From positions 32,001 to 96,000 of IMG/VR virus record IMGVR_UViG_3300010396_000006: a stretch of DNA of 64,000 nt, one strand, 5' to 3'. The number at the start of each line of letters is the position of its first letter. Within the stretch, counting starts at the first letter, position 1. Below are positions 12,357 through 53,787 of the stretch, piece by piece. The position numbers and the translations under genes were made by a program. Origin of the DNA: a virus. Below the pieces are notes generated by a model. That model was not told the DNA's origin. It did not search any database and was given only the letters and a program-made list of their open reading frames with translations.

Positions 12357-12850
12357 CGTTCAAAGTCGGCGATTTGGTTGAATGCATCGATAAAGATGCA
12401 ATTCACGGCGTTGGGAATCGGTTCAATATTCTCGAAGTCAGTCCGGACGGCCTGCACATTCGGATCGACGGAACTGGGCTCTGGTTGAAATCCAGATTCA
12501 AGCTTATTGAACCTAGTGAGAAATCCAGAGGGCAGCTTGCATGTGAGGCATTCGCGGCCCGGCGAAGAATTTCCGGGCATGACTATAGCGGCTGGAACCA
12601 TCTGGATGTCAGCGAACAAGAGGCATGGGAAGCCGCCGCGATCGCAAATCGAGAGATTCCCTCTCAATCGATCACGAAAGAGGAACTGGACGTCGTCGCG
12701 GCATTGAAGAGTGCCTACAACGCATACCAGAAGCTTGATCAACGCGATGCCGATCAAGACGAGCATTTCCTACAGTCAATGGAAACATCTCTCCGGATCA
12801 TCACGTTCCGCATCGCCAAACGAGTCAACCCAGAAGTCTGGGGTGACTGA
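12353..12850 (+). CDS. Hypothetical protein (SH3-like N-terminus plus helical module)
   Basis: FKVGDLVECID; GQLACEAF..W..L...EQEAWEAAA. Confidence 0.65.
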   Translation: MTFKVGDLVECIDKDAIHGVGNRFNILEVSPDGLHIRIDGTGLWLKSRFKLIEPSEKSRGQLACEAFAARRRISGHDYSGWNHLDVSEQEAWEAAAIANREIPSQSITKEELDVVAALKSAYNAYQKLDQRDADQDEHFLQSMETSLRIITFRIAKRVNPEVWGD

Positions 12851-12884
12851 CAAAACCGAACCCCTTAAATCAAAGGGCAATTTT

Positions 12885-13571
12885 ATGACAGAAATCGACG
12901 TTAATACTCTGTTCGCAGTTGGGGCCACTGTTCATCCGAAGGAAACCGGATTTGGATTGATTGCAGGTATACCGTATGGAATCGTGACTGTGACGCCGGA
13001 ACCGACCGCACCGGGCGGCGCTGTTCTGACGCTCACGGGAATGGAGGCCGAAAAGCCATATTCACCGCATCTATTCATGGAATACGATCTGTGGCTCGCT
13101 GGAACCGAGAAGAAAAAGGCGGCAGACGCAAAACCAAAACTTCCCCCTATCCAAAAAATCGCGCAAGCGACTGGTTCACAACGATCCGTTGTGTTCGTCA
13201 AACTCGATACCGGTGTTTTCAAGGATGACCTATTCCCATCGATCCGAGCCGCAATTCAGCAGCAACTGATTGGATCATGCCTCGAAGGATGCGTGGTTAT
13301 TGTCTACTCGCAAGCTGAAATCGCGATCGTCAGCGAGCATGCCGAATCTGAGATCAAATCTGAATTCGACGAACCGTGGTATCCAATCTATAAATTCGAT
13401 GCGCCACAATGGGAACACGTGTGGGTTAGATGCGAAGATGGAACAACTCAACTGGCCTATTGCACGGGGGATGATGAGTTCATGACTCTCGAATCGAATA
13501 TCGCAGCGCCAGATCTGATCAACGAAGTCACTCACTGGTCTAAATTCATCAACAAGCAGTTCACGGAATAG
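12885..13571 (+). CDS. Hypothetical protein with DUF551-like C-terminus
   Basis: WYPI...P....VWV...VTHW pattern. Confidence 0.55.
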   Translation: MTEIDVNTLFAVGATVHPKETGFGLIAGIPYGIVTVTPEPTAPGGAVLTLTGMEAEKPYSPHLFMEYDLWLAGTEKKKAADAKPKLPPIQKIAQATGSQRSVVFVKLDTGVFKDDLFPSIRAAIQQQLIGSCLEGCVVIVYSQAEIAIVSEHAESEIKSEFDEPWYPIYKFDAPQWEHVWVRCEDGTTQLAYCTGDDEFMTLESNIAAPDLINEVTHWSKFINKQFTE

Positions 13572-19576: not shown

Positions 19577-21325
19577 ATGACAGTCTATGGCAGTGTGTGC
19601 GTGAGTGTTCCAACCGGTCCATCGTCAACGAAAAGCTTCTCGTTTGGGGTCCCAGGCGAGATCGTGGATCGGATGTGTGCAAGACCGGATATTGAATGGG
19701 AACCCCAATTCAAGGCGATGGTCAACAAGGCAATCAACGGGCCACCGATCGAATCAGACAATAAGGAAGAACTGAAACCGCCATTCGTTTCCGGCCAGAA
19801 AGTGATCTGCGTTCTGAACAGCAAAAATCTCGGCGGATTGACTGTCGGTGAGGAATATACGATCTGGAGATGCTTGAAGGACTCGATGATGTCGAGCGGC
19901 TTCAAATGCGAACTCAAGGAAAAGATGGTGGGCCAGATGTATTGTGCATCGCTGTTCAAAGCGAAGTCGGAGTCTGGAAAACTGTCAAACGATGAACCAC
20001 CATTCCAAGTCGGCGATCATGTTGAGATGCTCAAAGAGAGAGATCAAAAACCAACCGGGGTTGCCAGTCTCGTAGTTACGGGCGTTCGTTCACCGGAGCA
20101 GATGGCGGGGCATTGGACGCTTCCAGGCGTCAAGGCAAACGAAGGTGAGTGGTTTGTGTCGTGCGATCCAAAATGCACTGCATGGGGACCGGCAGGATAT
20201 TTTCGCAAGGCGTTCTTACCGCCATTCGCAGTCGGTGAGGAAGTGTTGGCGAATTACAACTTTTGGTCTGACTTGAATACGCTGGCTTCTGCAATCCAGA
20301 TCCACGAGAACAAGCCATATCGAATTAGAGCAATCCAAAAGGAAGTCGACTGCAATTCCGGTTGGAAAGTCTGGGTGGAAGGACAGCAAGGCGGTTGCGA
20401 TGCGTCGAAGTTCAGGAAGATGGATTCAATCGGAGAACAAATACGAAAGTCGCTCGAAGGAACATATCGCAATGCCCAGGAACTTATTGATTTTGAAGTC
20501 GGCCATGAAGCGGCAATTGCGAGAACGAACTATTTCGCATATCACGGACCGTTCGAAAGCGGCGATTTGCGATGGGGCCAAGTCAATATTGGCGAAAGAC
20601 GTCGATGGTTGAACGCCGCGAAAGCTGTCGAAGCAATCGTGAAAGATTGTGACGAATTTCGTATCGCCAATTCGATCGAAGAACTGATCCAGCAGAACAG
20701 CGGACCGGAAGATCTGAACCTCGAAGCTGGCGTGAACAAACTGGAACTGGCGTTGCAGTGGGTGAAAGATCGGATTGTCCACGAAAAGGCGAAGATCGCA
20801 CCGCAACCGTTCCAAGTCGGAGAAGTAGTTCAGGCTGTTGAAAACGTGATGAGCGGAAACGGAAAAGGAACTGTCGCCGCTGGTTGTCATATCAAAGTAT
20901 CGGCCTGCGAACGACGCAACCCTGATATCTGTCCTTCAGGCTGGATCGTGTATGCCGAAGATTGTGACCACTGGGGCGGATTCGATTCAGCGAAGTTCAA
21001 GAAAGATCCGATTGTTAATCCGGTCTCGACAGATCAATGGAAATTGCCCAATTCAGGGACTGTCAAATTCAGTCCCATCATTAATCCAAAACCAGGACAG
21101 ATCCCCATCTACAGGGGTGATGGTCAAGTTGAATGGATTGATCTTCCGAAAGATCAAACAAGATCGATAGCGTGGGAATACAGAGTAACTCCATGTCTGG
21201 ATGTCATTGATGAAGGATTTGATTCTGGCGTTGTCGACAGATTGAATAACAGCGGTGAAATCGGCTGGGAATTTGTAGCGTTCACTCCTATGACAGGACG
21301 AGCCGTATTCAAGCGCAGGAAGTGA
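19577..21325 (+). CDS. Multi-module hypothetical protein with four PF.xG.xV (SH3-like) repeats
   Basis: PPFVSGQKV, PPFQVGDHV, PPFAVGEEV, QPFQVGEVV, each ending ..F(K/R)(A/K). Confidence 0.7.
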   Translation: MTVYGSVCVSVPTGPSSTKSFSFGVPGEIVDRMCARPDIEWEPQFKAMVNKAINGPPIESDNKEELKPPFVSGQKVICVLNSKNLGGLTVGEEYTIWRCLKDSMMSSGFKCELKEKMVGQMYCASLFKAKSESGKLSNDEPPFQVGDHVEMLKERDQKPTGVASLVVTGVRSPEQMAGHWTLPGVKANEGEWFVSCDPKCTAWGPAGYFRKAFLPPFAVGEEVLANYNFWSDLNTLASAIQIHENKPYRIRAIQKEVDCNSGWKVWVEGQQGGCDASKFRKMDSIGEQIRKSLEGTYRNAQELIDFEVGHEAAIARTNYFAYHGPFESGDLRWGQVNIGERRRWLNAAKAVEAIVKDCDEFRIANSIEELIQQNSGPEDLNLEAGVNKLELALQWVKDRIVHEKAKIAPQPFQVGEVVQAVENVMSGNGKGTVAAGCHIKVSACERRNPDICPSGWIVYAEDCDHWGGFDSAKFKKDPIVNPVSTDQWKLPNSGTVKFSPIINPKPGQIPIYRGDGQVEWIDLPKDQTRSIAWEYRVTPCLDVIDEGFDSGVVDRLNNSGEIGWEFVAFTPMTGRAVFKRRK

Positions 21326-23976: not shown

Positions 23977-26900
23977 ATGTCACAAATCATGAGCCGACGC
24001 CGCAACCGCAACCGTCGCGTTGAGAACTATCGCAAGAATTCGGATCGGGTTGTTGAGCATCCAAATGTTCCGGCCCCCGAACTGAACGACTCCCAAATCA
24101 AGTCGATGGCGTCTCAGATGCGGGCGGCTCTGGCCGGAAGCTTCGGCGGCGCTCAAGTCACGAATCACCGCGAAGAAGCTCTCCACTATGAGGGCAATAG
24201 CTACGTCAATATCGCGGCCATCTGCGCCCAAATGATGATGGTGACGATAACAGCCTATGTCGACGGATCGAACCAGCTTCGACAGCAGTCGGTCCGGAAG
24301 TCGCTGCGAGGTCTCGTCGGAAGCCGATGGAAGTCTCAATATGGGGTTGATGAGGCATCGTCGAAGCAACTCGAATCAGACCATTACCTGATGCGATTGC
24401 TGTCGAAGCCAAATCCGCACGAACCGGGCAGCATGTTCCGGTATCGGCAAACTCTTCAACTCAGGCTCACTGGAGGTGCGTTCCTGTGGAACGTCCCAAA
24501 TATCAACGGCCGGACGTGCGAACGGTACGTCATCCCCACCACATGCCTGACGCCGGTCTATCCAGACAACACGTTGCCGTACGGTGGTTATCGCGTTCAA
24601 CCAAACTGTATGCGATGGATTCCACTGGTTGACGATGGATTCGTGATCGGGACCCCGGCCCTGATGCGAGTGTTGGGCATGATCATTGATGCCCGAGAAA
24701 TCCAAAAGGTTGGCTATCCACATCCGATCTGGCTGGATGACTTCCAAAGCCCGATGTCTGCTGGCGCTCAGTGGGTCGATGCCGAACGATCGATCAACAT
24801 CGCACGGGCAATGGGCATCAGCCGCGGCATGAATCCGAGCGGTTTCCTTGAACTATCCAAAGAATACATGGGCATCGAACAAGATGCGCTGAACATCACT
24901 CAGCGGAAACTCGATCGACAATATGGCGGCGTCAACAACACGGGCAAGGTCATTGCCGTGGCTCCCGATACCAAGTTCACCGGATACGATCGAAGCCCGA
25001 AAGACATGGAATACCATGAAGGGTACTTGGATCACCGGGAAGCGAATCAGTCTCTACACGGCGTTCATCCGATCATCACTGGCGGACAGCCCCCCGGCGC
25101 ATACGCGGCCTACTACGCCGCCATGCGAGCATTCGACAACAACACGTTGACTCCCATTTGTGACATGCTGGCGGAATCAGACACGTTCCACATTGCACCG
25201 CAATTCGGCGAAGGGATCACGATCGAGATCGAGCCAAAGCCGATCAACGATGAGGACGAACTGAATTCACGTCTCCAGGTCGATGGTCAATTGGGGATCA
25301 TCAAGGTCAATGAAGCGCGAGCATTGCGAGGAATGCCGCCATTGGACGGAGCGCAAGGAGAAAAGCTGTGCGGACCGACTTCAAAGGATAAGGTTGGTCA
25401 GGATCAAGACAGCGACAATCCATCCAAGCCGAAGAAACCAAAGCAGTCTGGCGATGCGCCGTCAACTCCCGAGGTCCAAGAAGCCGAACAAGCGGACGTC
25501 CCCAAGGCTCCCGAAAATCCCATCGTCGGCAAGAGTGAATCAAAATCACTTCAAGCCGCAATGGAAGGGATGAAGGAGGCGGACGAAGACTACATTCAAG
25601 AAATAGTTGCCAAGGCGTTGGATTCGCGACTGAAGGCGATGCAACCTGCCGAGAAGCCAAAGCGGAAGTATTCCTCGACGCAGTTTGATCTGCCTGCCGG
25701 TCTCGCCGAAAAAGTGCAGGAGATGGCAGCCCTGATCAATCCGGCCGATCTCGCATCGGATGGAATCGAAGAAAATCCGCACGTGACTTGCTTGTACGGG
25801 CTGACCGAAGAATCACCCAATGATGTCAAGAAAGCCGTCAAGGGAATCTCGGCCGGTCCGATCGTTCTTGAATCGCTGTCGTTGTTCCCGGCTGGTGACA
25901 AGCTTGCTCAGCATGGCGGCGAACAGTTCGACGTTTTGAAGATCAGCATCGGCGGAAAGTTCATTCACGAGATTCACAATGCGATCGCAGAATCGTGCGA
26001 GTATGAAACCGATTATGCCGACTATTCTCCTCACTGTACGATCGCCTACTTGAAGCCGGGAAAAGGCCGCAAGTATGTGACGATGAACAATCCAGTGGAT
26101 GGGATGACGTTCATTCCTGACAAGCTGATCTTCAGTAGCAAAAACCGAACGGTCTCGGCAATTCGATTGAGCGTTCTGAAATCAGTCGAAGAACAACCAT
26201 CAGAAGCTCAGATTACTGCCGGCAATTACAAAAAAGATCACATCACAATTCAGGGGCTAAGGATCTCAATCGAAAATCCGAAAGGATCTGTTCGAAGTGG
26301 TCGTGACGATGATGGCAATGAGTGGTCAACGAAAATGCGGAATGATTACGGCTACATCAAAGGAACGAAATCAGATTCCGATGGTGATCACATTGATGTC
26401 TTCGTTGGGCCAAATCCAAGTTCAGAATTGGTGTTCGTAATTGATCAGGTCAATCCGCAAAGCGGGCAACATGACGAACACAAATGCATGTTGGGATTCG
26501 ATTCGAAAGATCAAGCGAAGTCTGCCTATCTCGAAAACTATTCCAAGGGTTGGAAAGGCTTCGGCGGCATTACTCCAATGCACATGGATCAATTCAAGGA
26601 ATGGCTAGACAGCGGAGATTCATCAAAAGGAATCGCGAGAAAATCTCTCACGGCAGCATTCTCCGAATCAGAAATGAAGGGCCACAATCCAATCAGCGAC
26701 ATCCAAGCCATTGGAAAGAGACTCGCTGAATCCGATTGTGGAATGCCCGGATACGGTCAGATCTTTATCAAGGAAAACGGATCTGGCCAAGCATGGTATG
26801 TCGGTGGCGACGGAGATGAACGAGGATTCGATAAGACTGTCATTCAAGAACTGAAGAAAGTCACGGGGATTGACGAAGTTCGTTATGAGTCTGAATCGTT

Positions 26901-29900
26901 CCCGCCCGATGGGGAAGGATGGATTCAGGTCTATCCGAAAGTGTCGAAGCGTAAATCTCTCGGCATGTCCGAAGGGATCGGGTCAGATGGAGGATTCGCC
27001 GTCGCTTCCGAAGACGAACGATGCCCAAAATGTCCCAAATGCGGATCACGGGAAACGCATCATGCTAGAACTGATGGCACAGGGAACGCGATCTGTAGCA
27101 ATTGCAAATCAATTTTCACTGATCCTGATTATGGAAAACAGAAATCAGTTTCGTTTCCATCGTCAGAAGTCGTACCGGGCAACAACGGCCATCAATTCCC
27201 CAAGAACACATTGATTCTTGGTGGGGATCAAGTTCTGATGCCACCAGAGTCAGAACTCAAATCCAAATGGATCACGATTCATCCTGGGGGAGACAAAGAC
27301 GCAACTGGCATTCACATCCTGATTGACGAAGACGGCGAAATCAAAGGCGGTCCGGCCGAACTGCGAGACAAAGGCATCCGCAAGATGTCTGACTTCGGGA
27401 AAGAAGACCTGAAGCCAGTCAAACCAAAAGACAATCACGAGAAGGCCGCATTCAACGCCAGCAAGCGAGCCGATCAAGCATCCGCCGATGCTAAAGAGTC
27501 GGGCGACCTGTTCGACCATATTGCGGCTAAAGAAGCCCACATGCACGCCGCAGCCCATCACAGCAAAGGCGGCAATGAAGATCAGGCGTCATATCACAGA
27601 AAGGCGGCTCAACAGCACGGTTCAGCCGCGACACCAACGGCTCCAGCGTCAAACGGACAACTGAGCGACGAAAAGATCATCCAGGCAATGAAGCCATCCG
27701 TTGATCGCAGCGGCATGGTTGAGGCCGAAGAACTGCGATCGATGCCAGAATTCGCTGGGATGTCGAAAGAGAAATTCGACCAACGAATGATGGACATGGC
27801 CAAAGTTGATCAGCCGGGCGGACCGAAGGTCTCGTTGCACCGATACGACCGAGCCGAATCGCTGTCAGCGGACGATAAAAAAAAGATGATCTTCGATCCG
27901 GATGCGCCGGCACGATTCGAAGATGGACAAAAGGGAGCGTATTACAATGCGGTCTCCATCCGCAAATCGTTGTCAGAAATGAAATCGCATTGGATTACGA
28001 TCCATCCTCATGGCGATGAGCATGATGGAACGCACGTTTTGATCGATGGAGAAGGGAATATCGAAGGCGGTCCCGAAGGACTGGCGAAACGTGGGATTCA
28101 CAAGCTGTCCGACTTTGGGAAAGGCGGCGAATCAGCAGACAAACCACACGAAACCCGTGAAGAGTGGGCGAAGAGACATTCCGATGCCGCCGATCATTGG
28201 TTACATGGAGTGAACAATGATCTGGCAGCCGTGCATCAAGAACACGGCGACTTGATCACAAAAAAGCACATGACGGACAGCTTTCGAAATCACGTCAATA
28301 CCGGAAGAATGACCCCAGATCAATATGAGGATCATGTTTCTAAGGGAACCATTCTCGGTGGACACGATTACGAACGCGCTCAGCATGTCGAGCAGAAAAT
28401 CCATGAGATCAAAAATCGTCCGCTAACTGTCCCGGAGCCAGATGGAAAGCATCCATACGTTGAACCGCCCGCCAAGCCGCCGGAAGAAAAGCCAGAAATC
28501 CGACCAGACATCGACGCTCCGATCAGCAAGAAAGACACGCCTCGCGAAACGGCGGCAAAGCAAAAGAAGATTGACGATGATTATGCGTTTGCTCGCAATT
28601 CATCCATCCCGAATGTCGGCGAAGATGTTGCCGATTCGGCTCGTCACAAGCGAAATGCTTGGCGTGGATTGGAAGATGCGGAATCCAATGGAACCGCCGA
28701 ATCAATGGTGACTCGTGATAATCTGCTCAAGGCCGAACCGCACAACTTGATGTCTCATGCCGGAAAACATCCACTGACATCACTGGCCATGCATTACGCG
28801 ATGAGATCGTTCCCAGCGAAACCATCCAGCAATCGCGAAGTGGCCAATGCCAGCGATCGGAAGGACTATCACGAAGCGTATCAGAGCATCAAAGCAAAAG
28901 CCGAGCATCTGGCGGAAACAGAATCCGATCCACGGGCAGCCGCAGAGAAGCTACGAGAACACGTCGGCAATCATCTGAAGGGATTGAGGGAGCGGAAGAT
29001 TCCCGGACCCACAATTCCCGTGGCCGATCGATACAACAAGACCGCGAACAATTTGGTTGGAATGCACAAGGCGTTACGATTCGCCAGCTACGGCCGACCA
29101 TCGGCAAATAGCGTTCATGGCAAGATGGAAGAGTTCTCAAAGGCGATGGCCGGGAAATATGGACTTCCAGAAAAGTATGAACCTGAAGCGGCCAAGCAAT
29201 TCGCCTCCCATATTGAGACTCACGCCAAGGACATTATTGACGGGAAATCGCTTCCACAGTCATTTGGCATTAAGGGAGAAAAGAAAAACGAATTTAATCC
29301 TGCCGATCGATACGTCAAGCATGCTGAACGAGCCGGGGGCAAGGATGTCAGTCACCAAACCGCAACGGGAGTCTCGGCGGCAAACTCCGTCGTAAACGAC
29401 TTCGGGATGCGTGGCGTCCAATGGGGTAACAGCGTCACTGACGACGAACGCCATCATCACGCTGCCAAGGTTGTCGAAGCGTTGACCGATCTGGCCGATA
29501 CTCTCGGCATCAAGCCGGCTGATCTCAGTCTCGGCGGAAAGCTGGCCTTGGCCATTGGCGCTCGCGGTAAGGGAACTGCCTCGGCTCATTACGAACCGCA
29601 TACCCAGGCCATCAACCTGACGCGGGCCAGCGGAGTCGGTACTCTCGCCCATGAGTGGGGACACGCCTTTGATCATTCACTGGAGAATTTCGCGAATCGT
29701 GCGACGAGTGCGGTCTATCACAGCGAAAACTATCGATCCAGTCCGGCAATGCAAAAGCTGACATCCGATTTCCGATCATCGGGATTCACGAATCGAATTC
29801 ATAGTGAGGTTCGTGATATGGTGCGTCAGGGCCTGATGTCGAAAAAGAAAGCGGAATACTGGCTATCAACCAGAGAACAATTCGCCCGTTGCTTCGAGAG

Positions 29901-30684
29901 TTATGTTCAACACAAGCTGGCTGACACGAATCAGAAGAATACGTATCTTGCTGGTCTGATTTCGGACGGCGGCTTGTGGCCGACCAAGGAAGAAACGGCC
30001 AAGATGGCCCCCGCTTTTGACAGTCTGTTCGCTGAATTCCGCAAACAAAAGTATGGAAGCGAAAATCGGATTGATCAGTCTCGATCGGAAATCAAATCGG
30101 CAGTCTTGGATTTGGTTGGTCAATCCGTCTTTAAATCGTCGCGATGGATCACAATCCATCCGCACGGTGAAGACGCGAAAGGCGTCCATATCCAGATCAA
30201 TGACGACGGCGAGATCCTGTCAGGTCCCGCACATCTTCGCGACAAGGGAATTACCCACATGGGGGATTTCGCGAAGCGGGGAAGCAATCAAGCGGCCGTG
30301 GACGAACTGAAGCCTCACGCTCTCGAATTCCTGACCGAGCAACACAAGCTGAGAGAACATCACAAAGCCGAAGCTCGCAAACTGACTGGCAAGAATGCCG
30401 GCAATCTGGCGATGTCGGAAAACAGCTATCACGATCATTCGGATGCTCATCGATTCGAGACCGCCGCTCGCACATTCGCCCGAGAGAATCCCGATGCTGG
30501 ATTGAATCCAGATGCTCACGACACGCCGGCCAAAGTCTGGGAGCTAATCCGGGAGGGCAAGAAGAAAGCCCCGCTGATCAATTCGAAGGAAGTCCACGAG
30601 ACAGCCAGAGCCTGGGTGAAGAATCACCGAACGAAGCGTGCGCCGGTAGGCACATACGAACACGATTCCGATTGGAACTTCTGA
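23977..30684 (+). CDS. Portal protein fused to polyvalent effector domains (2H phosphoesterase, InPase, Zn ribbon, 3x WITIHP repeat, LPD1 metallopeptidase)
   Basis: HK97-type portal motifs (LLSKPNP, L.LTGGAF, NEAR...MPPL); HVT/HCT; AGNYKK..ENPKGS.R.G..DGDHIDVF..DEHKCMLGF; GVQWGN..GARG..AHYEP..LAHEWGHAFD..FAR.FE.YV. Confidence 0.9.
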   Translation: MSQIMSRRRNRNRRVENYRKNSDRVVEHPNVPAPELNDSQIKSMASQMRAALAGSFGGAQVTNHREEALHYEGNSYVNIAAICAQMMMVTITAYVDGSNQLRQQSVRKSLRGLVGSRWKSQYGVDEASSKQLESDHYLMRLLSKPNPHEPGSMFRYRQTLQLRLTGGAFLWNVPNINGRTCERYVIPTTCLTPVYPDNTLPYGGYRVQPNCMRWIPLVDDGFVIGTPALMRVLGMIIDAREIQKVGYPHPIWLDDFQSPMSAGAQWVDAERSINIARAMGISRGMNPSGFLELSKEYMGIEQDALNITQRKLDRQYGGVNNTGKVIAVAPDTKFTGYDRSPKDMEYHEGYLDHREANQSLHGVHPIITGGQPPGAYAAYYAAMRAFDNNTLTPICDMLAESDTFHIAPQFGEGITIEIEPKPINDEDELNSRLQVDGQLGIIKVNEARALRGMPPLDGAQGEKLCGPTSKDKVGQDQDSDNPSKPKKPKQSGDAPSTPEVQEAEQADVPKAPENPIVGKSESKSLQAAMEGMKEADEDYIQEIVAKALDSRLKAMQPAEKPKRKYSSTQFDLPAGLAEKVQEMAALINPADLASDGIEENPHVTCLYGLTEESPNDVKKAVKGISAGPIVLESLSLFPAGDKLAQHGGEQFDVLKISIGGKFIHEIHNAIAESCEYETDYADYSPHCTIAYLKPGKGRKYVTMNNPVDGMTFIPDKLIFSSKNRTVSAIRLSVLKSVEEQPSEAQITAGNYKKDHITIQGLRISIENPKGSVRSGRDDDGNEWSTKMRNDYGYIKGTKSDSDGDHIDVFVGPNPSSELVFVIDQVNPQSGQHDEHKCMLGFDSKDQAKSAYLENYSKGWKGFGGITPMHMDQFKEWLDSGDSSKGIARKSLTAAFSESEMKGHNPISDIQAIGKRLAESDCGMPGYGQIFIKENGSGQAWYVGGDGDERGFDKTVIQELKKVTGIDEVRYESESFPPDGEGWIQVYPKVSKRKSLGMSEGIGSDGGFAVASEDERCPKCPKCGSRETHHARTDGTGNAICSNCKSIFTDPDYGKQKSVSFPSSEVVPGNNGHQFPKNTLILGGDQVLMPPESELKSKWITIHPGGDKDATGIHILIDEDGEIKGGPAELRDKGIRKMSDFGKEDLKPVKPKDNHEKAAFNASKRADQASADAKESGDLFDHIAAKEAHMHAAAHHSKGGNEDQASYHRKAAQQHGSAATPTAPASNGQLSDEKIIQAMKPSVDRSGMVEAEELRSMPEFAGMSKEKFDQRMMDMAKVDQPGGPKVSLHRYDRAESLSADDKKKMIFDPDAPARFEDGQKGAYYNAVSIRKSLSEMKSHWITIHPHGDEHDGTHVLIDGEGNIEGGPEGLAKRGIHKLSDFGKGGESADKPHETREEWAKRHSDAADHWLHGVNNDLAAVHQEHGDLITKKHMTDSFRNHVNTGRMTPDQYEDHVSKGTILGGHDYERAQHVEQKIHEIKNRPLTVPEPDGKHPYVEPPAKPPEEKPEIRPDIDAPISKKDTPRETAAKQKKIDDDYAFARNSSIPNVGEDVADSARHKRNAWRGLEDAESNGTAESMVTRDNLLKAEPHNLMSHAGKHPLTSLAMHYAMRSFPAKPSSNREVANASDRKDYHEAYQSIKAKAEHLAETESDPRAAAEKLREHVGNHLKGLRERKIPGPTIPVADRYNKTANNLVGMHKALRFASYGRPSANSVHGKMEEFSKAMAGKYGLPEKYEPEAAKQFASHIETHAKDIIDGKSLPQSFGIKGEKKNEFNPADRYVKHAERAGGKDVSHQTATGVSAANSVVNDFGMRGVQWGNSVTDDERHHHAAKVVEALTDLADTLGIKPADLSLGGKLALAIGARGKGTASAHYEPHTQAINLTRASGVGTLAHEWGHAFDHSLENFANRATSAVYHSENYRSSPAMQKLTSDFRSSGFTNRIHSEVRDMVRQGLMSKKKAEYWLSTREQFARCFESYVQHKLADTNQKNTYLAGLISDGGLWPTKEETAKMAPAFDSLFAEFRKQKYGSENRIDQSRSEIKSAVLDLVGQSVFKSSRWITIHPHGEDAKGVHIQINDDGEILSGPAHLRDKGITHMGDFAKRGSNQAAVDELKPHALEFLTEQHKLREHHKAEARKLTGKNAGNLAMSENSYHDHSDAHRFETAARTFARENPDAGLNPDAHDTPAKVWELIREGKKKAPLINSKEVHETARAWVKNHRTKRAPVGTYEHDSDWNF

Positions 30685-30797
30685 TTCATCAATAGCCAGA
30701 CAGTTGCGGAATCTCTAAGATTTCTGCGATTGATCTGGTCCCGTTGATGGAGCATGAAGATGATTCAACGCATGCAAGAAAGGTTTTCAAAATGGAG

Positions 30798-31478
30798 ATG
30801 AATCGACGCTCACTACTCGGAATGATCCTTGGTTCGGCTTGCTCGTTATTATTGCCAACTAAGTCGATATCCGCTGGTTTGAAGTCACTGGAAATTCCGG
30901 TCGATGCGAACGGCATCCCAATTCACTGTTATGTCTGGAACGTGCCAAACATCAACGGCCGGACGTGCCAGAGACATATTATTCCTGTCGACGATCTTGC
31001 ATTGATTAAAGCGAATACGGAGTTGCCTTATAGTGGGTATCGTATCAGCCAATCCCCCAATCGATGGGCATCCATGCCGCTTTATGGGGAAAGCCCGGTT
31101 GAAAATCCATCATTGCGAGTCGCTGGATATATCATTGATGACAGGCAAGTAGAACGAATCTCTCCATCGAATCCATTTCGGCTGAAGTTGCTTTACCATC
31201 ATGACGTCGAGGTATGCTTTATTGACGGGTCTGCCGATGACTCGATCGCCTTCTATCTCGCATGGCAAAGATGCCGCCAAACTCCATCGCAAGAATCGGA
31301 GTTGCGAAAACATTTAGCGAATGGCGACGGCATTGCGATTGGCTTTCGCAAATCAAATTTGATGTCTTTTGTGGCAATCAACCAAGCGGTTATGGACTGC
31401 GGTGTCCCATGCTTTGAGACAGACAAAATGACAGAAAGCGAAAATCGATGCACGCGGACGTATGCTCACGTCAGCTAG
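30798..31478 (+). CDS. Twin-Arg-like leader + portal-derived fragment + FYxxW domain
   Basis: MNRRSLLG; WNVPNINGRTC identical to the portal. Confidence 0.75.
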   Translation: MNRRSLLGMILGSACSLLLPTKSISAGLKSLEIPVDANGIPIHCYVWNVPNINGRTCQRHIIPVDDLALIKANTELPYSGYRISQSPNRWASMPLYGESPVENPSLRVAGYIIDDRQVERISPSNPFRLKLLYHHDVEVCFIDGSADDSIAFYLAWQRCRQTPSQESELRKHLANGDGIAIGFRKSNLMSFVAINQAVMDCGVPCFETDKMTESENRCTRTYAHVS

Positions 31479-32050: not shown

Positions 32051-33416
32051 ATGTCGGATGATCTATTCCGCATCAATCCAAATGCATTCGACGATCCAGC
32101 GTTGGCGGCATGGCGTGACGAACTGATCAAAGTCGGGCCGATGCGAGTCGGGCTGCCAATCAAAACAGAAAGTGAAACCATGCCGAAATATGCATACAGA
32201 GCATCCAGCGGTGACTGTGAAATCGGGCATCATGTGACATGCGATCAGGACAAGGTGATCAGCCATGTCGTAAGCATGGTTCGACATTCGCGTTATCCAG
32301 ATCGATCAGACGCCATTGAGATTCACAACGATTCTACCGGGGAACACATCTGCATCTTGGCGTTCCACAAATCGCGGGTGATTGCGATCTATCCGAATTG
32401 CGTAACGACTTGGGCCAACGGATCAGAGTTATCTCTTAAATTGTTGGACGAACCAGTATCAGTCGATGCCAAATTCCACGACAACCGCATTGGGCAAAAG
32501 TGCTGGTATTATGTCTATGATTTCAAAGCCAGAGCCGCCGGCCCGTGGCTTCAAGGGTTCCTTCGCATGTGGGGAACCGACTTCATAGAGTTCGAAAGTG
32601 GTACTGGATTGTTTCCGATTGCCGTGATCGAGGATGATGAAACCGGAAAGTGTTGTTCTGTTCCGGTGGATCAAGTTCATTTCTCAGCAACAAAGCCAGA
32701 AAACGAGACGCCATGAACAAGGAACAGCGGGACGCATTGAAAGAAAAGATCGAAGAATTCGATGATCGAGAGAGGCGAATCGCGATCATCAAAGAAATCT
32801 TTCGACAATGCGAAGGTTCATCGCATTGCATGCACCTCAAGGATATGACGGATTTCTTGCGTGAGTGTGCGCCGGAGGAATCGGTCATGTTGGCCGTAGT
32901 CGCCTTGCGTCCGATTCTCCAGGCGATCTTGGAACGCGACATCAAGGCGATTCAGGAACTCCGTCCGGAACTCTGAAAGGCGGATTGCAGGATGCTCAAT
33001 CGTTTACTCGCATGGTTCAGGCTGAATGGATCGAAAATCGGAACCTATTCTGAGTTTGAAGATTGCTGGCTCGGCTATTATGGAAAGCCGATTTATGAGC
33101 CACCGGCCATGATCGAAGCCGCAAAACAGCAGATCATCGACCGAGACGGCACAATCAACGAGATTCGCAATCTGTATGGATTGCCGTCATTGATCCAATT
33201 TGAAAGGCCTTATTCGTCATGTGGGACCGAGATCGCATCAGACAAGCCGCAATGAAGCTCTGTCGCATCCGTGGCCTCAATCCGAACGAAGTGATCCAGG
33301 CCGCATGCCCAGAGATTGAGAACGACAAGAACGTCTATATGTGGGAATCGGTCGTTGGTGAGATCCGCCGAGCCGTGGAAGTTCAGGAAGCAATCGAGTT
33401 CGCGAAAGGCCTGTAA
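32051..33416 (+). other. Four hypothetical genes (32051-32716, 32713-32976, 32992-33255, 33252-33416)
   Basis: Tightly packed ORFs with ATGA overlaps. Confidence 0.6.
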
Positions 33417-33450
33417 CTCAATTGCGTCATCTAAAACAGGAAAGATTCCA

Positions 33451-34125
33451 ATGTACGAACGATTCACGGATCGGGCCGCGAAAATAATGCAATTGGCCAA
33501 TCAAGAAGCCCAGCGATTCAATCATGAATACATCGGGACCGAACATATTCTGTTGGGACTCGTGAAAGAGGGTTCAGGTGTTGCGTCAAACGTCTTGAGA
33601 AATCTGGACATCGACTTACGCAAGATCCGCTTGGAAGTTGAAAAGATGGTCGGAAGCGGTCCCGATATGATCACAATGGGAAAGCTGCCTCGGACGCCAG
33701 GGGCGAAGCGGGTTGTTGAACTGGCGATCGAGTCCGCGAATGCACTCGGGACAAATTACGTCGGGACCGAACATCTGTTGCTTGGTCTGATCGGCGAGAG
33801 TGAAGGCATTGCGTTCCAAGTGTTGCAGAAACTTGGTGCTACAAATGACAAGGTGATTGCCGAGTGGGAATCGCTGATGGGCCAGACAGCGCCCGGCAGA
33901 TCAACAAAGCCAGTTCGGGAACCACTGGCGTTTGTTTTCGCGAATTATCCCCAAGCGTACGTTCCGATATTCGATACGCCGCGGAGCATGCCTCCGGTCA
34001 TGGAGGAAGTGATCACGATTCTCGGCGTGTCCATGTGGAACGGTCGGGAATGGGTCTCGCGCTTCGGTGCCAAATGCGACCAGAAGTTGATCAAATGGTG
34101 GATACCGTTGTTCAATGTGGTTTGA
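33451..34125 (+). CDS. Stand-alone ClpC N-terminal (Clp repeat) domain fused to an unrelated short C-terminus
   Basis: MYERFTDRA.KIMQLANQEAQRFNHEYIGTEHILLGL...YVGTEHLLLGL; no AAA+ domain. Confidence 0.9.
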   Translation: MYERFTDRAAKIMQLANQEAQRFNHEYIGTEHILLGLVKEGSGVASNVLRNLDIDLRKIRLEVEKMVGSGPDMITMGKLPRTPGAKRVVELAIESANALGTNYVGTEHLLLGLIGESEGIAFQVLQKLGATNDKVIAEWESLMGQTAPGRSTKPVREPLAFVFANYPQAYVPIFDTPRSMPPVMEEVITILGVSMWNGREWVSRFGAKCDQKLIKWWIPLFNVV

Positions 34126-49108: not shown

Positions 49109-50482
49109 ATGCCCGCTCCCACATCTGCCGAACTTCTCGAAATGAGCAAAACCGCAATTCAGCGAGCTGAAAAGGCTGAATCGGCGTTGAAGTCGTTGCA
49201 AGACAAAGTCGAAGCGACTCCGTCCATTCATGCCCACGGTTCGCGCGACAATGGCGCTGAAGGCTGGTGGGAAGAAGCCGGTGCGGATTCACCGGAACTG
49301 ACGATGCTTTCCGGCTATCAAGGCCGTGTTCCGCAGGCGAGTCCGTCTCGTGGTTCCATGAAAAAGTCGATGTCGATTCTGAAATCGATCGGCTATCGCC
49401 CGGCCGGCCGTCAGGTCAGCACATTCAAATCGATCTCCGACTGGATTCGCCAGGGGATGCAAAAGGACGGCGAAGGGACCGCCAAGTTCCGCGACAACAT
49501 GTATGCCCACATGAAGGAATACGATTCCCAAATGAAGGCATTGGGAATGTCGGAAGGCATCGCGTCTGACGGCGGATTCGGTGTGATTCCCGAATTCAAC
49601 CTGAAGATTCACGAGCATCTTTACAGCAACAACATCCTTTCCCGCACGGACGGCTATACCGTCACCGGGAACAACATGGCGTTTCTGGCGAATGCCGAAA
49701 CCAGCCGCGTCACCGGCAGTCGAGCCGGGGGTATCCAAGGCAATTGGGTGGGTGAAGGTGGAACTTATTTGCCATCCAAGCCAACCGTCCGTCAGATCAA
49801 TCTGCGTTTGCAGAAACTGCAAGTGCTGGTCTATCTGACCGACGAATTGATCAATGACAATTCCATCGCGCTCGAACAATACGTGATGCGGAAGGCGTCC
49901 GAGGAATTCGCTTGGCTGATTGCTGATGCCATCTTCAACGGCAATAACGTCGGCAAACCGCTGGGAATCCAGAATGCCCTGTCGCTGCTGGCAATCGCCA
50001 AGGAAAGCGGTCAGGCCGATACGACCATCGTCGCTCAGAACATCATCAAGATGCAGAATCGGCTGTTCGCACCATACATGCAGAATGCATCGTGGTTCGT
50101 GAACCAAGACACGATTCAGCAGTTGATGCAACTCACCTTGGCAACCGGAACCTATTCCGGCCAACTGGTCTACCAACCGCCAACCGGGCTGGCTGGTCTG
50201 CCATACGGTACGCTCGGCGGTCGACCCGTCGAACCGATCGAATTCGCCAAAACGCTGGGGACTCAAGGCGATATCACGCTGGCCGATCTCAGCCAAGTGT
50301 TGTCGATCAGCAAAGGCGGAATCGAACAGGCCACGTCAATGCACGTCGCGTTCTTGACCGACGAAATGGCGTTGCGGTTCACGATGCGTATGAACGCGAT
50401 GCCGTGGGAAAACAGCCCGATCACCCCAGCCAACGGAACGAACACCCAATCGTCATTCGTCACCTTGGCTAGCCGTCCATAG
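49109..50482 (+). CDS. Major capsid protein (HK97 fold) with ~143-aa delta domain
   Basis: DGGFGVIPE, WVGEG, TDELI.D, I.NG..VGKPLGI, TL.GRPV, DEMALRF..R. Confidence 0.95.
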   Translation: MPAPTSAELLEMSKTAIQRAEKAESALKSLQDKVEATPSIHAHGSRDNGAEGWWEEAGADSPELTMLSGYQGRVPQASPSRGSMKKSMSILKSIGYRPAGRQVSTFKSISDWIRQGMQKDGEGTAKFRDNMYAHMKEYDSQMKALGMSEGIASDGGFGVIPEFNLKIHEHLYSNNILSRTDGYTVTGNNMAFLANAETSRVTGSRAGGIQGNWVGEGGTYLPSKPTVRQINLRLQKLQVLVYLTDELINDNSIALEQYVMRKASEEFAWLIADAIFNGNNVGKPLGIQNALSLLAIAKESGQADTTIVAQNIIKMQNRLFAPYMQNASWFVNQDTIQQLMQLTLATGTYSGQLVYQPPTGLAGLPYGTLGGRPVEPIEFAKTLGTQGDITLADLSQVLSISKGGIEQATSMHVAFLTDEMALRFTMRMNAMPWENSPITPANGTNTQSSFVTLASRP

Positions 50483-52975: not shown

Positions 52976-53338
52976 TTGTTCACAAGAGCGATGGCAACGG
53001 CGATTCGAGGTCTGGTGATCCCAGAACGGGGACCCGCCACGATCACGATGAACCCGAACAATTCGTCAATCACAGTCACGGTAACAGTTGAGGGTTGCTG
53101 GATTAAACCGATCAAGAGCGGATTGCAACGTTATGGTCAAATGAATGTCCAGGCCGATCAGACATTGGTCAAAGTTCCGGCGGAAGGATTGAACCCAACG
53201 GGTGCGACAAACTATCAGATTCGAACCGGCGATCTCATTGTCTTCAACGGACAAACCTACAACGTGACCGCGGCGGGGACGACAGTCAAAACGGTTCTGA
53301 CTGTTTGGGAATGCGTCTGCAAATTGGTGATCCAATAA
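52976..53338 (+). CDS. Head closure (stopper) protein
   Basis: Position and size; GD.IV..G.TY.V. Confidence 0.6.
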   Translation: MFTRAMATAIRGLVIPERGPATITMNPNNSSITVTVTVEGCWIKPIKSGLQRYGQMNVQADQTLVKVPAEGLNPTGATNYQIRTGDLIVFNGQTYNVTAAGTTVKTVLTVWECVCKLVIQ

Positions 53339-53787
53339 TGTTCAAATCAATCGCATTACCAATGGTCCGAGGGGGCCGCATCAAGTGCATGACCCCCGAC
53401 GAAATCAAAAGTTTCGCGGAAGTGTCGCAATCGATTCAGGACAAAGAAGGTGTCTCGAAAAAAGAAGCGGATGCGATGGCCGCGGCGGCTGGTCGGCGAG
53501 ATCTCGGTCAAGCGGAAATGACCCGCCGAAGCGAGGAAGGCCGCAAGGAAAGCGAATCCAAATCGGCTGTCACAACGCAAGAACTCGAAGATACCGGCGG
53601 ATTGGTTGTCGGTTCCGAATTGGACATGGCCATTCAAGATCTGTCCGACGTGATGTCCGGTCTGTCGACTGTTGATATGGATGACGTGATGAAGTTCATC
53701 CAATCGGAGATTCCCAAGCGAGCGACGTTTAAGGCCAATTCTGTCAAAAAATCGGCTGACACCGATGTTCAAAATCTGGATGAGTAA
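53338..53787 (+). CDS. Lys-Ser-punctuated small protein
   Basis: TAATG overlap; four KS sites. Confidence 0.6.
   Translation: MFKSIALPMVRGGRIKCMTPDEIKSFAEVSQSIQDKEGVSKKEADAMAAAAGRRDLGQAEMTRRSEEGRKESESKSAVTTQELEDTGGLVVGSELDMAIQDLSDVMSGLSTVDMDDVMKFIQSEIPKRATFKANSVKKSADTDVQNLDE

Follow-up and report, generated by a model that had tools for sequence, protein, structure and literature searches.

How might a string of enzyme modules that is fused to a phage portal protein be carried into the head and then separated into individual proteins? The question is raised by a 64,000-nucleotide stretch of DNA (the window; bases 32001-96000) from the complete virus record IMGVR_UViG_3300010396_000006, which spans 105,647 bp and has direct terminal repeats. 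The single portal gene of this genome is an open reading frame (ORF) that stays open over 23977-30684 on the plus strand of the window, and its product is a 2235-amino-acid (aa) portal fusion. An earlier note had proposed that Lys-Ser (K-S) dipeptides mark the domain boundaries of this chain, and that the head maturation protease frees the domains as separate proteins.

The portal probably carries this cargo into the head, and the protease probably cuts it loose there. Our confidence is somewhat better than even that the modules of this polyvalent protein are separated from the portal and from one another by the head protease. The earlier idea of protease-released portal cargo gains support from the enrichment of K-S at module boundaries, a site profile taken from the proteases of other phages, and the persistence of the pattern in fusions without an embedded peptidase. 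None of the computational tests that might have spoken against it, including those of conservation, protease fold and junction copy, did so. We infer cleavage, the sites used, release and ejection from these site statistics together with the architecture of the fusion, conservation, the assemblin fold of the protease and a copy of the capsid junction in the polyprotein.

Architecture of the portal fusion

The modules of the fusion are listed in Table 1. They were compared across eight portal fusions: the one described here, one from IMG/VR (G001, 1454 aa) and six from the protein database (P0010-P0015, 1305-1810 aa). The last six are 42-54% identical in their portal parts and carry differing cargo sets, which indicates fast module shuffling. 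The 2H, InPase, Zn-ribbon and LPD1 domains occur in one phage ORF together with a Phage_portal head-incorporation anchor, and on this basis the fusion counts as a polyvalent protein anchored to a portal, as the term is used by Iyer, Burroughs, Anand, de Souza and Aravind (2017; PMC5512222). By sequence match, the chain fused to the portal is made up of anti-defence-type enzyme modules. The 2H domain extends over aa ~576-728, and its LigT and Acb1 matches are weak. The LPD1 match (PF18796, E 3e-15) covers aa 1955-2024 within cargo module 2, and a homology block common to P0012 spans aa 1332-2050. An AlphaFold2 (AF2) model of aa 1-1200, built from an eight-row alignment, has a predicted local distance difference test score (pLDDT) of 45.8, with values above 70 only at ~aa 562-732, around the 2H domain.

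Three copies of a domain of ~50 aa (WITIHPxGD..G.H.LID..G.I..GP..L...GI...SDFGK) lie at aa 1096-1145, 1337-1386 and 2054-2104. This WITIHP domain is undescribed. AF2 suggests a small beta domain. Of eight further portal fusions that were examined, seven have one or two copies and P0015 has none, and the domain always opens a module. No match was found for the WITIHP domain, nor for aa 890-993, 1096-1336 or 2054-2235, in Pfam (E<=5), PDB sequences, the ESM Atlas or a search among shorter proteins; the negative results in Pfam and the ESM Atlas include the whole of cargo module 1.

Placement and context of Lys-Ser sites

All 18 K-S dipeptides that the earlier note listed in the polyprotein are where it placed them. 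They comprise Lys codons at 25531/25543, 26179, 26641, 26953, 27142, 27259, 27964/27982 and 30094/30133, dipeptides that it had marked as lying inside domains (TKSD at aa 798, AKSA at 848, CKSI at 1044 and GKSL at 1757), and those of the portal N-terminus (aa 42, 108 and 119). The portal core from aa 120 to 518 contains none.

Placement was measured against homology blocks, whose internal ends were taken from an all-against-all BLAST of the eight fusions; an end was counted as near when it lay at most 8 aa from K-S. Near ends number 92 of 246, against 30.9 expected (3-fold), and K-S ranks first of 137 dipeptides. The runners-up (SV, LK, SL and LG) are its neighbours within the motif. S-K, with the two residues in reverse order, shows no excess in the eight polyproteins (72 against 73.9 expected; K-S, 109). 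In the polyprotein described here, blocks start or end at about 559, 723-732, 887-900, 1068, 1094, 1332 and 2047-2053, and the adjoining lysines are K553, K735, K889, K1056, K1095, K1330/1336 and K2040/2053. Enrichment at boundaries across homologues, which the earlier note had named as a check, is thus present. Its claim that K-S marks domain boundaries stands as a statement about non-random placement and context, not about raw number.

The residues around these sites are also non-random. Ser occupies P4, the fourth residue before the bond, in 12 of the 18 K-S sites. Counts of the extended motif S-x-x-K-[SA] are 14 in the polyprotein (2.2 expected), seven in the protease (0.68) and five in the capsid protein (0.32). 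None of 20,000 shuffles reaches the count of any of the three, and in the other 64 ORFs of the window the motif is at chance level (9 against 8.5 expected). All five capsid copies are in the scaffold part, including the predicted junction SQMK143↓A144 (an arrow marks a cleaved or predicted scissile bond). RKSL, with four copies, is the commonest tetrapeptide of the polyprotein; any tetrapeptide reaches four in 13 of 2000 shuffles. As a cleavage signal, plain K-S proved too weak when counted, and the form that survives is K-[SAT] in the context S-x-hydrophobic-K↓S-L/M/F.

Module starts show the same residue. K-[SAT] precedes 12 of 12 WIT domains (drawn from nine proteins), 9 of 9 copies of the capsid junction and 15 of 15 RDxxG[KR][WF] motifs, against a background of 0.18, and these three kinds of module start are unrelated to one another. 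The last kind belongs to a longer motif, K-[SAT]-[FWYH]-x5-6-R-D-x-x-G-[KR]-[WF]-x-x-G, that opens many cargo modules with Lys at a fixed distance in all 15 cases. It is carried by P0010, P0012, P0014, P0015, G001 (L005), L011-L017 and positions 42150-42220 of the window, and in Schlesneria prophages it takes the form K[ST]F[DE]ESKHPRDxxGKF.

Three lysines that lie inside otherwise variable stretches, K108, K119 and K553, are the same in all eight fusions; K-[SAT] is also kept at the position of aa 523. In aa 1-119, Ser follows three of four lysines (0.43 expected). S105, R107, K108 and K119 are invariant in the eight fusions and also present in an unfused 473-aa prophage portal (L018). Because the unfused portal keeps the pair, K108 and K119 point to maturation of the portal itself and not to cargo release, and this part of the earlier list is reassigned.

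A copy of the capsid junction in the polyprotein

The capsid protein is, by its sequence, an HK97-type precursor with a predicted removable N-terminal scaffold domain and a junction after Lys. Conservation with other capsids begins at aa 141-146. As the earlier note had counted, K-S occurs four times, in each case before aa 108 in the scaffold (delta) part, and never in aa 144-457. The HK97 capsid gene encodes a 103-residue scaffold domain (PMC10275583), and direct reading of the two sequences places the HK97 junction FNK103↓S104LGSDADSAG beside K143↓ALG of this capsid. A three-way MAFFT alignment of capsids misplaced the HK97 junction, and the comparison is taken from the direct reading instead.

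Polyprotein aa 993-1009, K↓SLGMSEGIGSDGGFAV, and capsid aa 143-159, K↓ALGMSEGIASDGGFGV, are identical at 14 of 17 positions, a match that a search of genomes returned unprompted. The two segments differ by nine synonymous codon changes, so that protein-level selection, and not recent duplication, accounts for the match. All eight fusions and the L011 prophage fusion keep the pattern K-[ST]-x-(x)-G-[ML]-[SN]...G..GG[FM] with a Zn-ribbon behind it. The spacing from Lys to GMS, considered as a sign of co-variation between capsid junction and copy, is equal in this phage and in L011/L027 and unequal in G001, a sample too small to count. The junction copy is the strongest single argument that the enzyme that would cut the capsid protein also recognises the polyprotein.

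A different enzyme could be embedded in the chain itself. Cargo module 2 contains a zincin-like HEWGH motif (aa 1892) with a sub-threshold Zn_peptidase_2 match (E 0.0015; 18.6 bits against a cut-off of 27), followed by LPD1, and metallopeptidase (MPTase) domains have been proposed to release the domains of polyvalent proteins (Iyer et al. 2017, PMC5512222). The polyprotein might then process itself, and its K-S sites would be unrelated to the head protease. We regard this as very improbable. HEWGH is present only in this phage and P0012 among the eight fusions, whereas the K-S-led junctions and the capsid-junction copy are present in all; HExxH is absent from five, and a sixth (P0013) has only a chance-like HENAH. 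Moreover, the K-S-led motif also abounds in the capsid scaffold domain and the protease tail, neither of which would be expected to serve an MPTase as substrate.

The predicted head protease and its candidate cleavage sites

Directly upstream of the capsid gene lies the gene for a predicted head maturation protease of 474 aa, the sole one of its kind in the genome. The protein has no Pfam match at E<=5 (and so none to Peptidase_S78) and no PDB sequence match, and BLAST finds only a 20-aa similarity to HK97 gp4 (E 0.068). Its first 221 aa are modelled by AF2 at pLDDT 89.9. The closest structural match of the model is T4 gp21 (5jbl; VIA-align Z 10.2, root-mean-square deviation 2.9 A over 126 residues), followed by the herpesvirus proteases of human cytomegalovirus (Z 6.6), varicella-zoster virus (6.4) and Kaposi's sarcoma-associated herpesvirus (4.6); the next unrelated match scores 3.8. 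The top Foldseek matches are to the same families and are weak (E 0.01-0.03). The model thus assigns the protein the assemblin/T4 gp21 fold. H90 and S148 are invariant in 54 of 54 protease homologues and are candidate catalytic residues. The enzyme is predicted to work like the Peptidase_S78 family, yet it is no member of that family by profile.

The 15 K-S dipeptides counted in the protease by the earlier note are confirmed, about 4-fold more than the 3.8 expected, and 12 of them lie in the tail beyond aa 215. The protease domain has 1026 relatives, and tail statistics were taken from 109 of these, one per 50%-identity cluster. K-S occurs 736 times in these homologues against 271 expected (2.7-fold), compared with 211 for S-K, and ranks third among all dipeptides after two active-site motifs. 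The logo of 494 tail K-S sites has Ser at P4 (3.2-fold), Leu or Met at P2, and Leu, Met or Phe at P2'.

Because the S-x-x-K-S refinement had come from the proteins under study, an independent profile was sought and built from the protease tails of other phages, this phage being excluded. It gives K143↓A144 the best score of any capsid K-[SA] (5.93) and the two K-A dipeptides of the mature capsid negative scores. It scores K553↓A of the polyprotein at 5.26 and ranks polyprotein K-S above the K-S of other ORFs (Mann-Whitney p=0.007). The listed sites do not fare equally as release sites, and aa 519, 889, 1056 and 2053 score poorly.

Sites 108, 119, 553, 993 and 1330 are the invariant or best-scoring ones, which would fit a more limited processing. 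The portal N-terminus would be trimmed at K108/K119 and the chain cut at K993, perhaps also at K523/K553, with the rest remaining as one or two large proteins. The N-terminal pair is kept even in an unfused portal, and the P2 portal gpQ is cleaved in maturation (PMC7552001). This outcome would leave without explanation why WIT-domain starts are K-S-led in 12 of 12 cases across nine proteins, and why blocks shuffle precisely at 735, 889, 1095, 1336 and 2053. It seems to us quite unlikely.

Several observations count against cargo release by the head protease. The total of K-S in the polyprotein is not enriched (18 against 13.2 expected; shuffle p=0.11), and plain enrichment was dropped as evidence. 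The S-x-x-K-S refinement was first noticed on these same proteins, and the preference for Ser at P4 is weak in G001 (4 against 1.5) and P0015 (2 against 1.6). The profile scores of sites 519, 889, 1056 and 2053 are zero or less. The spacing between K-S and the cores of the WIT and RDxxGKW modules is constant, so that the dipeptide could simply belong to these domains, and the hydrophobic pattern at P2 and P2' also fits amphipathic helices. The AF2 model of aa 1-1200 is too poor to place sites in exposed linkers, save around the 2H domain. From Lys to GMS, the capsid junction of G001 is one residue longer than the copy in its polyprotein. Finally, the support lies at the level of sequences and models.

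The fixed spacing and the unremarkable total would also suit a chain that is never cut. In that case the K-S-led motifs would be structural elements at the N-terminal edge of modules that recombine, or would allow scaffold or protease to dock; the 245-kDa chain would stay on the portal, and its capsid-like segment would insert among capsid N-arms at the portal vertex. Large packaged proteins are reported for N4 (the virion RNA polymerase) and phi24B (gp47), the N4 polymerase being packaged unprocessed (PMC5512222; bioRxiv 10.64898/2026.04.10.717836). Absence of cleavage leaves unexplained, however, that three unrelated module types and the mature capsid N-terminus all start just after K-[SAT], that K-S and not S-K is enriched in this protease tail and in the 109 homologues, and that a profile derived from such tails picks out the capsid junction. 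We consider it unlikely.

Table 1. Positions of the portal-fusion modules and head genes in the window
Feature	Position	Strand	Sites, matches and context
Portal N-terminal extension, aa 1-119	23977..24333	+	K42↓S, K108↓S, K119↓S
Portal core, aa 120-523	24334..25545	+	PF04860 Phage_portal, aa 129-452, E 2e-22
Helical connector, aa 524-553	25546..25635	+	bounded by SESK↓SL and SRLK↓AM
2H phosphoesterase module, aa 554-735, end SVLK↓SV	25636..26181	+	PF13563 2e-06, LigT 7e-04, Acb1 9e-04
InPase module, aa 736-889, end ARK↓SL	26182..26643	+	PF18823, aa 743-877, E 1e-57; blocks end at 887/893
Module without Pfam match, aa 890-993, end SKRK↓S	26644..26955	+	block 900-1068 common to P0014, 58% identity
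Capsid-junction copy, K993↓SLGMSEGIGSDGGFAV	26953..27003	+	14/17 identical to capsid K143-V159
Zn-ribbon (aa ~1018-1049) and connector, QK↓SV (1056), ELK↓SK (1095)	27004..27261	+	Zn_Ribbon_TF 3.8e-05
Cargo module 1, aa 1096-1336: WITIHP domain and helical region, end SIRK↓SLSEMK↓S	27262..27984	+	
Cargo module 2, aa 1337-2053: WITIHP domain, large region, HEWGH (aa 1892), LPD1; ends SEIK↓SA, SVFK↓SS	27985..30135	+	
Cargo module 3, aa 2054-2235: WITIHP domain and C-terminal domain	30136..30684	+	blocks 2047-2233 and 2026-2235 common to P0013 and P0011
WITIHP domains	27262-27411, 27985-28134, 30136-30288	+	internal repeats K-S-x-WITIHP...GP...SDFGK
Head maturation protease (aa ~45-215) with K-S-rich scaffold-like tail, 474 aa	47602..49026	+	directly upstream of capsid gene
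HK97-fold major capsid protein, scaffold (delta) aa 1-143, predicted junction SQMK143↓A144LGMSEG	49109..50482	+	PF05065 7e-38, aa 196-440

Proposed mechanism of cargo release

In the reading we favour, release by the head protease, the only portal protein would be made as a 2235-aa precursor with a polyvalent C-terminal extension. Established portal structures have their C-terminus facing the head interior, and the extension would for this reason come to lie inside the prohead. As the shell assembles around the portal, the extension would be enclosed in twelve copies of each module. By our estimate this cargo, ~2.3 MDa, would occupy a few per cent of the space that a 105-kb genome requires.

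The assemblin-fold protease would be co-assembled through its tail. It would remove the capsid scaffold domain at K143↓A144 and digest its own tail. P2 offers a precedent in gpO, in which a protease and a scaffold are fused and to which cleavage of the capsid protein, of gpO itself and of the portal gpQ is attributed (PMC7552001). In the polyprotein it would cut after Lys in K-[S/A/T] at module junctions, with S-x-L/M/R-K↓S-L/M/F as the preferred context. About eight proteins of roughly 3-80 kDa would be freed, and a portal core of ~45 kDa (aa 120-523) would be left. The released proteins would exit with the DNA at infection; smaller free proteins would pass the tail channel more easily and could act on different targets.

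Relation to known systems

Polyvalent proteins, their fusions to portals, the idea of polyprotein-like processing, and the trimming of cargo by head proteases in T4, phiKZ and SPN3US are already known. Portal fusions of 2H and InPase have been described, for example, BcepF1.124, and the same authors predict that polyvalent proteins are packaged and injected, likening them explicitly to viral polyproteins (Iyer et al. 2017, PMC5512222). The chain described here resembles them in combining LPD1, InPase, 2H and zincin-like domains with a head-incorporation domain. The earlier model assigns release to an embedded MPTase and considers assemblin-like peptidases only when they are C-terminally fused (PMC5512222). 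Here, in contrast, the candidate enzyme is a separate head protease, the site is common to the capsid and the protease, one site is a copy of the capsid site, and most relatives lack an MPTase. Our literature searches found no paper that proposes a separate head protease as the releaser of a portal-anchored polyvalent protein, and none on a site common to capsid and protease or on a conserved copy of the capsid junction.

Other head proteases are known to act on cargo. T4 gp21 cuts internal proteins and Alt, and the phiKZ/SPN3US proteases gp175/gp245 cut ejection proteins (PMC9026906, PMC10052503, PMC5694885). As in these phages, a head protease of the same fold family (Z 10.2 to gp21) is proposed here to trim prohead cargo that is later ejected with the DNA. 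In T4 and the giant phages the cargo proteins come from separate genes and are targeted by a short N-terminal propeptide with affinity for the scaffold core, whereas a covalent portal fusion in a fixed 12 copies, with one chain cut many times after Lys, is proposed for this phage. The T4 and giant-phage systems cut after Glu. The resemblance to the T4 capsid targeting sequence (CTS) cargo system is one of functional analogy only.

HK97 gp4 and gp5 offer a parallel for the capsid, with an HK97-fold capsid protein, an N-terminal scaffold domain and a K↓S-L-G junction (HK97 K103↓S104; PMC10275583). In both phages, K-S is confined to the scaffold part of the capsid protein and the C-terminal part of the protease. 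The HK97 portal gp3 (424 aa) differs in having no cargo, and the protease described here differs from gp4 in lacking a Pfam S78 match and in having a tail of ~260 aa.

An N-terminal serine protease fused to a long scaffold tail is shared with P2 gpO and the herpesvirus assemblin-scaffold precursor. Herpes assemblin cuts before Ser (Ala↓Ser). In P2 gpO/gpQ and the herpesviruses, the scaffold tail is self-cleaved and structural proteins undergo short trimming; the P2 portal is cleaved (PMC7552001), but no effector cargo is attached to the portal. Proteins of the MuF/SPP1 gp7 type and MuF polymorphic toxins likewise bring effectors into the capsid on a portal-associated anchor; this anchor is a portal-binding protein in 1-2 copies, not the portal itself, and no processing is described (PMC5576092).

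Related prophages and other genes of interest

Scans of IMG/VR returned no relative with the portal as query and one with the capsid. The pairing of portal fusion, capsid and protease is based on this phage, G001, one contig from a metagenome-assembled genome (MAG) labelled as Dongia, and prophages of Schlesneria (Planctomycetota). Related portals, capsids (59-64% identical) and proteases belong to prophages in Schlesneria genomes and MAGs and also to the contig binned as Dongia. The related prophages in Schlesneria genomes (L012-L016, L017 and L018) indicate a planctomycete host. The chromosome of Schlesneria sp. T3-172 carries two such prophages (L017 and L018), one with a 977-aa portal-InPase fusion and the other with the plain 473-aa portal. 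Fusions in these prophages are ~1000 aa long and join the portal to InPase or other modules. Their capsid junctions read K↓A or K↓T (HFK↓AIQGMSE), and K-[ST] precedes their F-[DE]-x-[SN]-[KQ]-[HY]-[PK]-RDxxG[KR]F motifs.

The cargo of other relatives is varied. The C-terminal end of the G001 fusion (L005:1234-5598) looks kinase-like by eye (HLGNWMV...LIDHGLAF), P0015 has matches to acetyltransferase families (PF13673/PF13508), and arrays of short helical repeats (NEILxKHG) are found in P0010, P0014 and P0015.

Several other ORFs in the window, all on the plus strand, stand out. Next after the portal gene, 30744-31478 encodes a 244-aa protein. Its N-terminus is signal/Tat-like (RRSLLGMILGSACSLLLP), and behind it comes a stretch that is a diverged copy of portal aa 168-253 (42% identity, E 8e-19). 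Its sequence makes it a partial portal paralogue with a putative export signal, and it might serve as a decoy for portal-sensing defence. The protein encoded at 33316-34125 has two repeats resembling the ClpA/ClpC N-domain (EYIGTEHILLGL...), and in G001 its homologue (L005:343-1191) lies directly upstream of the portal; such a protein might interact with host Clp machinery.

A PHROG portal family, phrog_2662, is matched in its C-terminal part by the 497-aa protein encoded at 41249-42742 (E 8e-08). At aa ~302-325 this protein reads AFK↓SFNPNEPRAKDGRWMSGG, the same K-S-led module-start motif as in the portal cargo of relatives, and it may be a second head protein with a protease-released module. 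The ORFs at 53305-53787, 12711-13571 and 19577-21325 each contain two S-x-x-K-[SA] against 0.24-0.37 expected, and the first of these (160 aa) has four K-S against 1.3 expected. All three might be head or neck proteins that the protease cuts as well.

A general 'cut-after-Lys' cargo code might even operate in Schlesneria-type phages, although we think this rather unlikely. Modules preceded by K↓S, placed behind the portal or a second head protein such as P0008, would be loaded in fixed copy number and freed by the head protease, and the new N-termini (S-x-WITIHP..., SFNPxxxRDxxGKW..., SLGMSxGxGxDGGF...) would be functional tags. For example, cargo could be docked beneath the shell, close to the portal, by the capsid-N-arm look-alike, with the small WITIHP domain as a possible leader for exit through the tail.

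Implications for phage biology

So far there have been only guesses as to how polyvalent proteins are packaged and split into working enzymes, most of them pointing to embedded metallopeptidases. A concrete, testable alternative with predicted scissile bonds is provided by this locus, in which the portal would be the anchor, the head protease the releaser, and the copy of the capsid site one handle on the process. If release by the head protease is correct, it would explain how anti-defence enzymes (the 2H/Acb1-like phosphoesterase, InPase and others) are delivered in a fixed dose ahead of gene expression. It would also extend the substrates of HK97/assemblin-type proteases from structural proteins to effector polyproteins, and would give a simple rule for loading foreign proteins into phage heads, namely fusion to the portal behind a K↓S-L site. 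Should the broader cargo code hold as well, these phages would possess a natural, modular and engineerable protein-delivery system distinct from T4 CTS.

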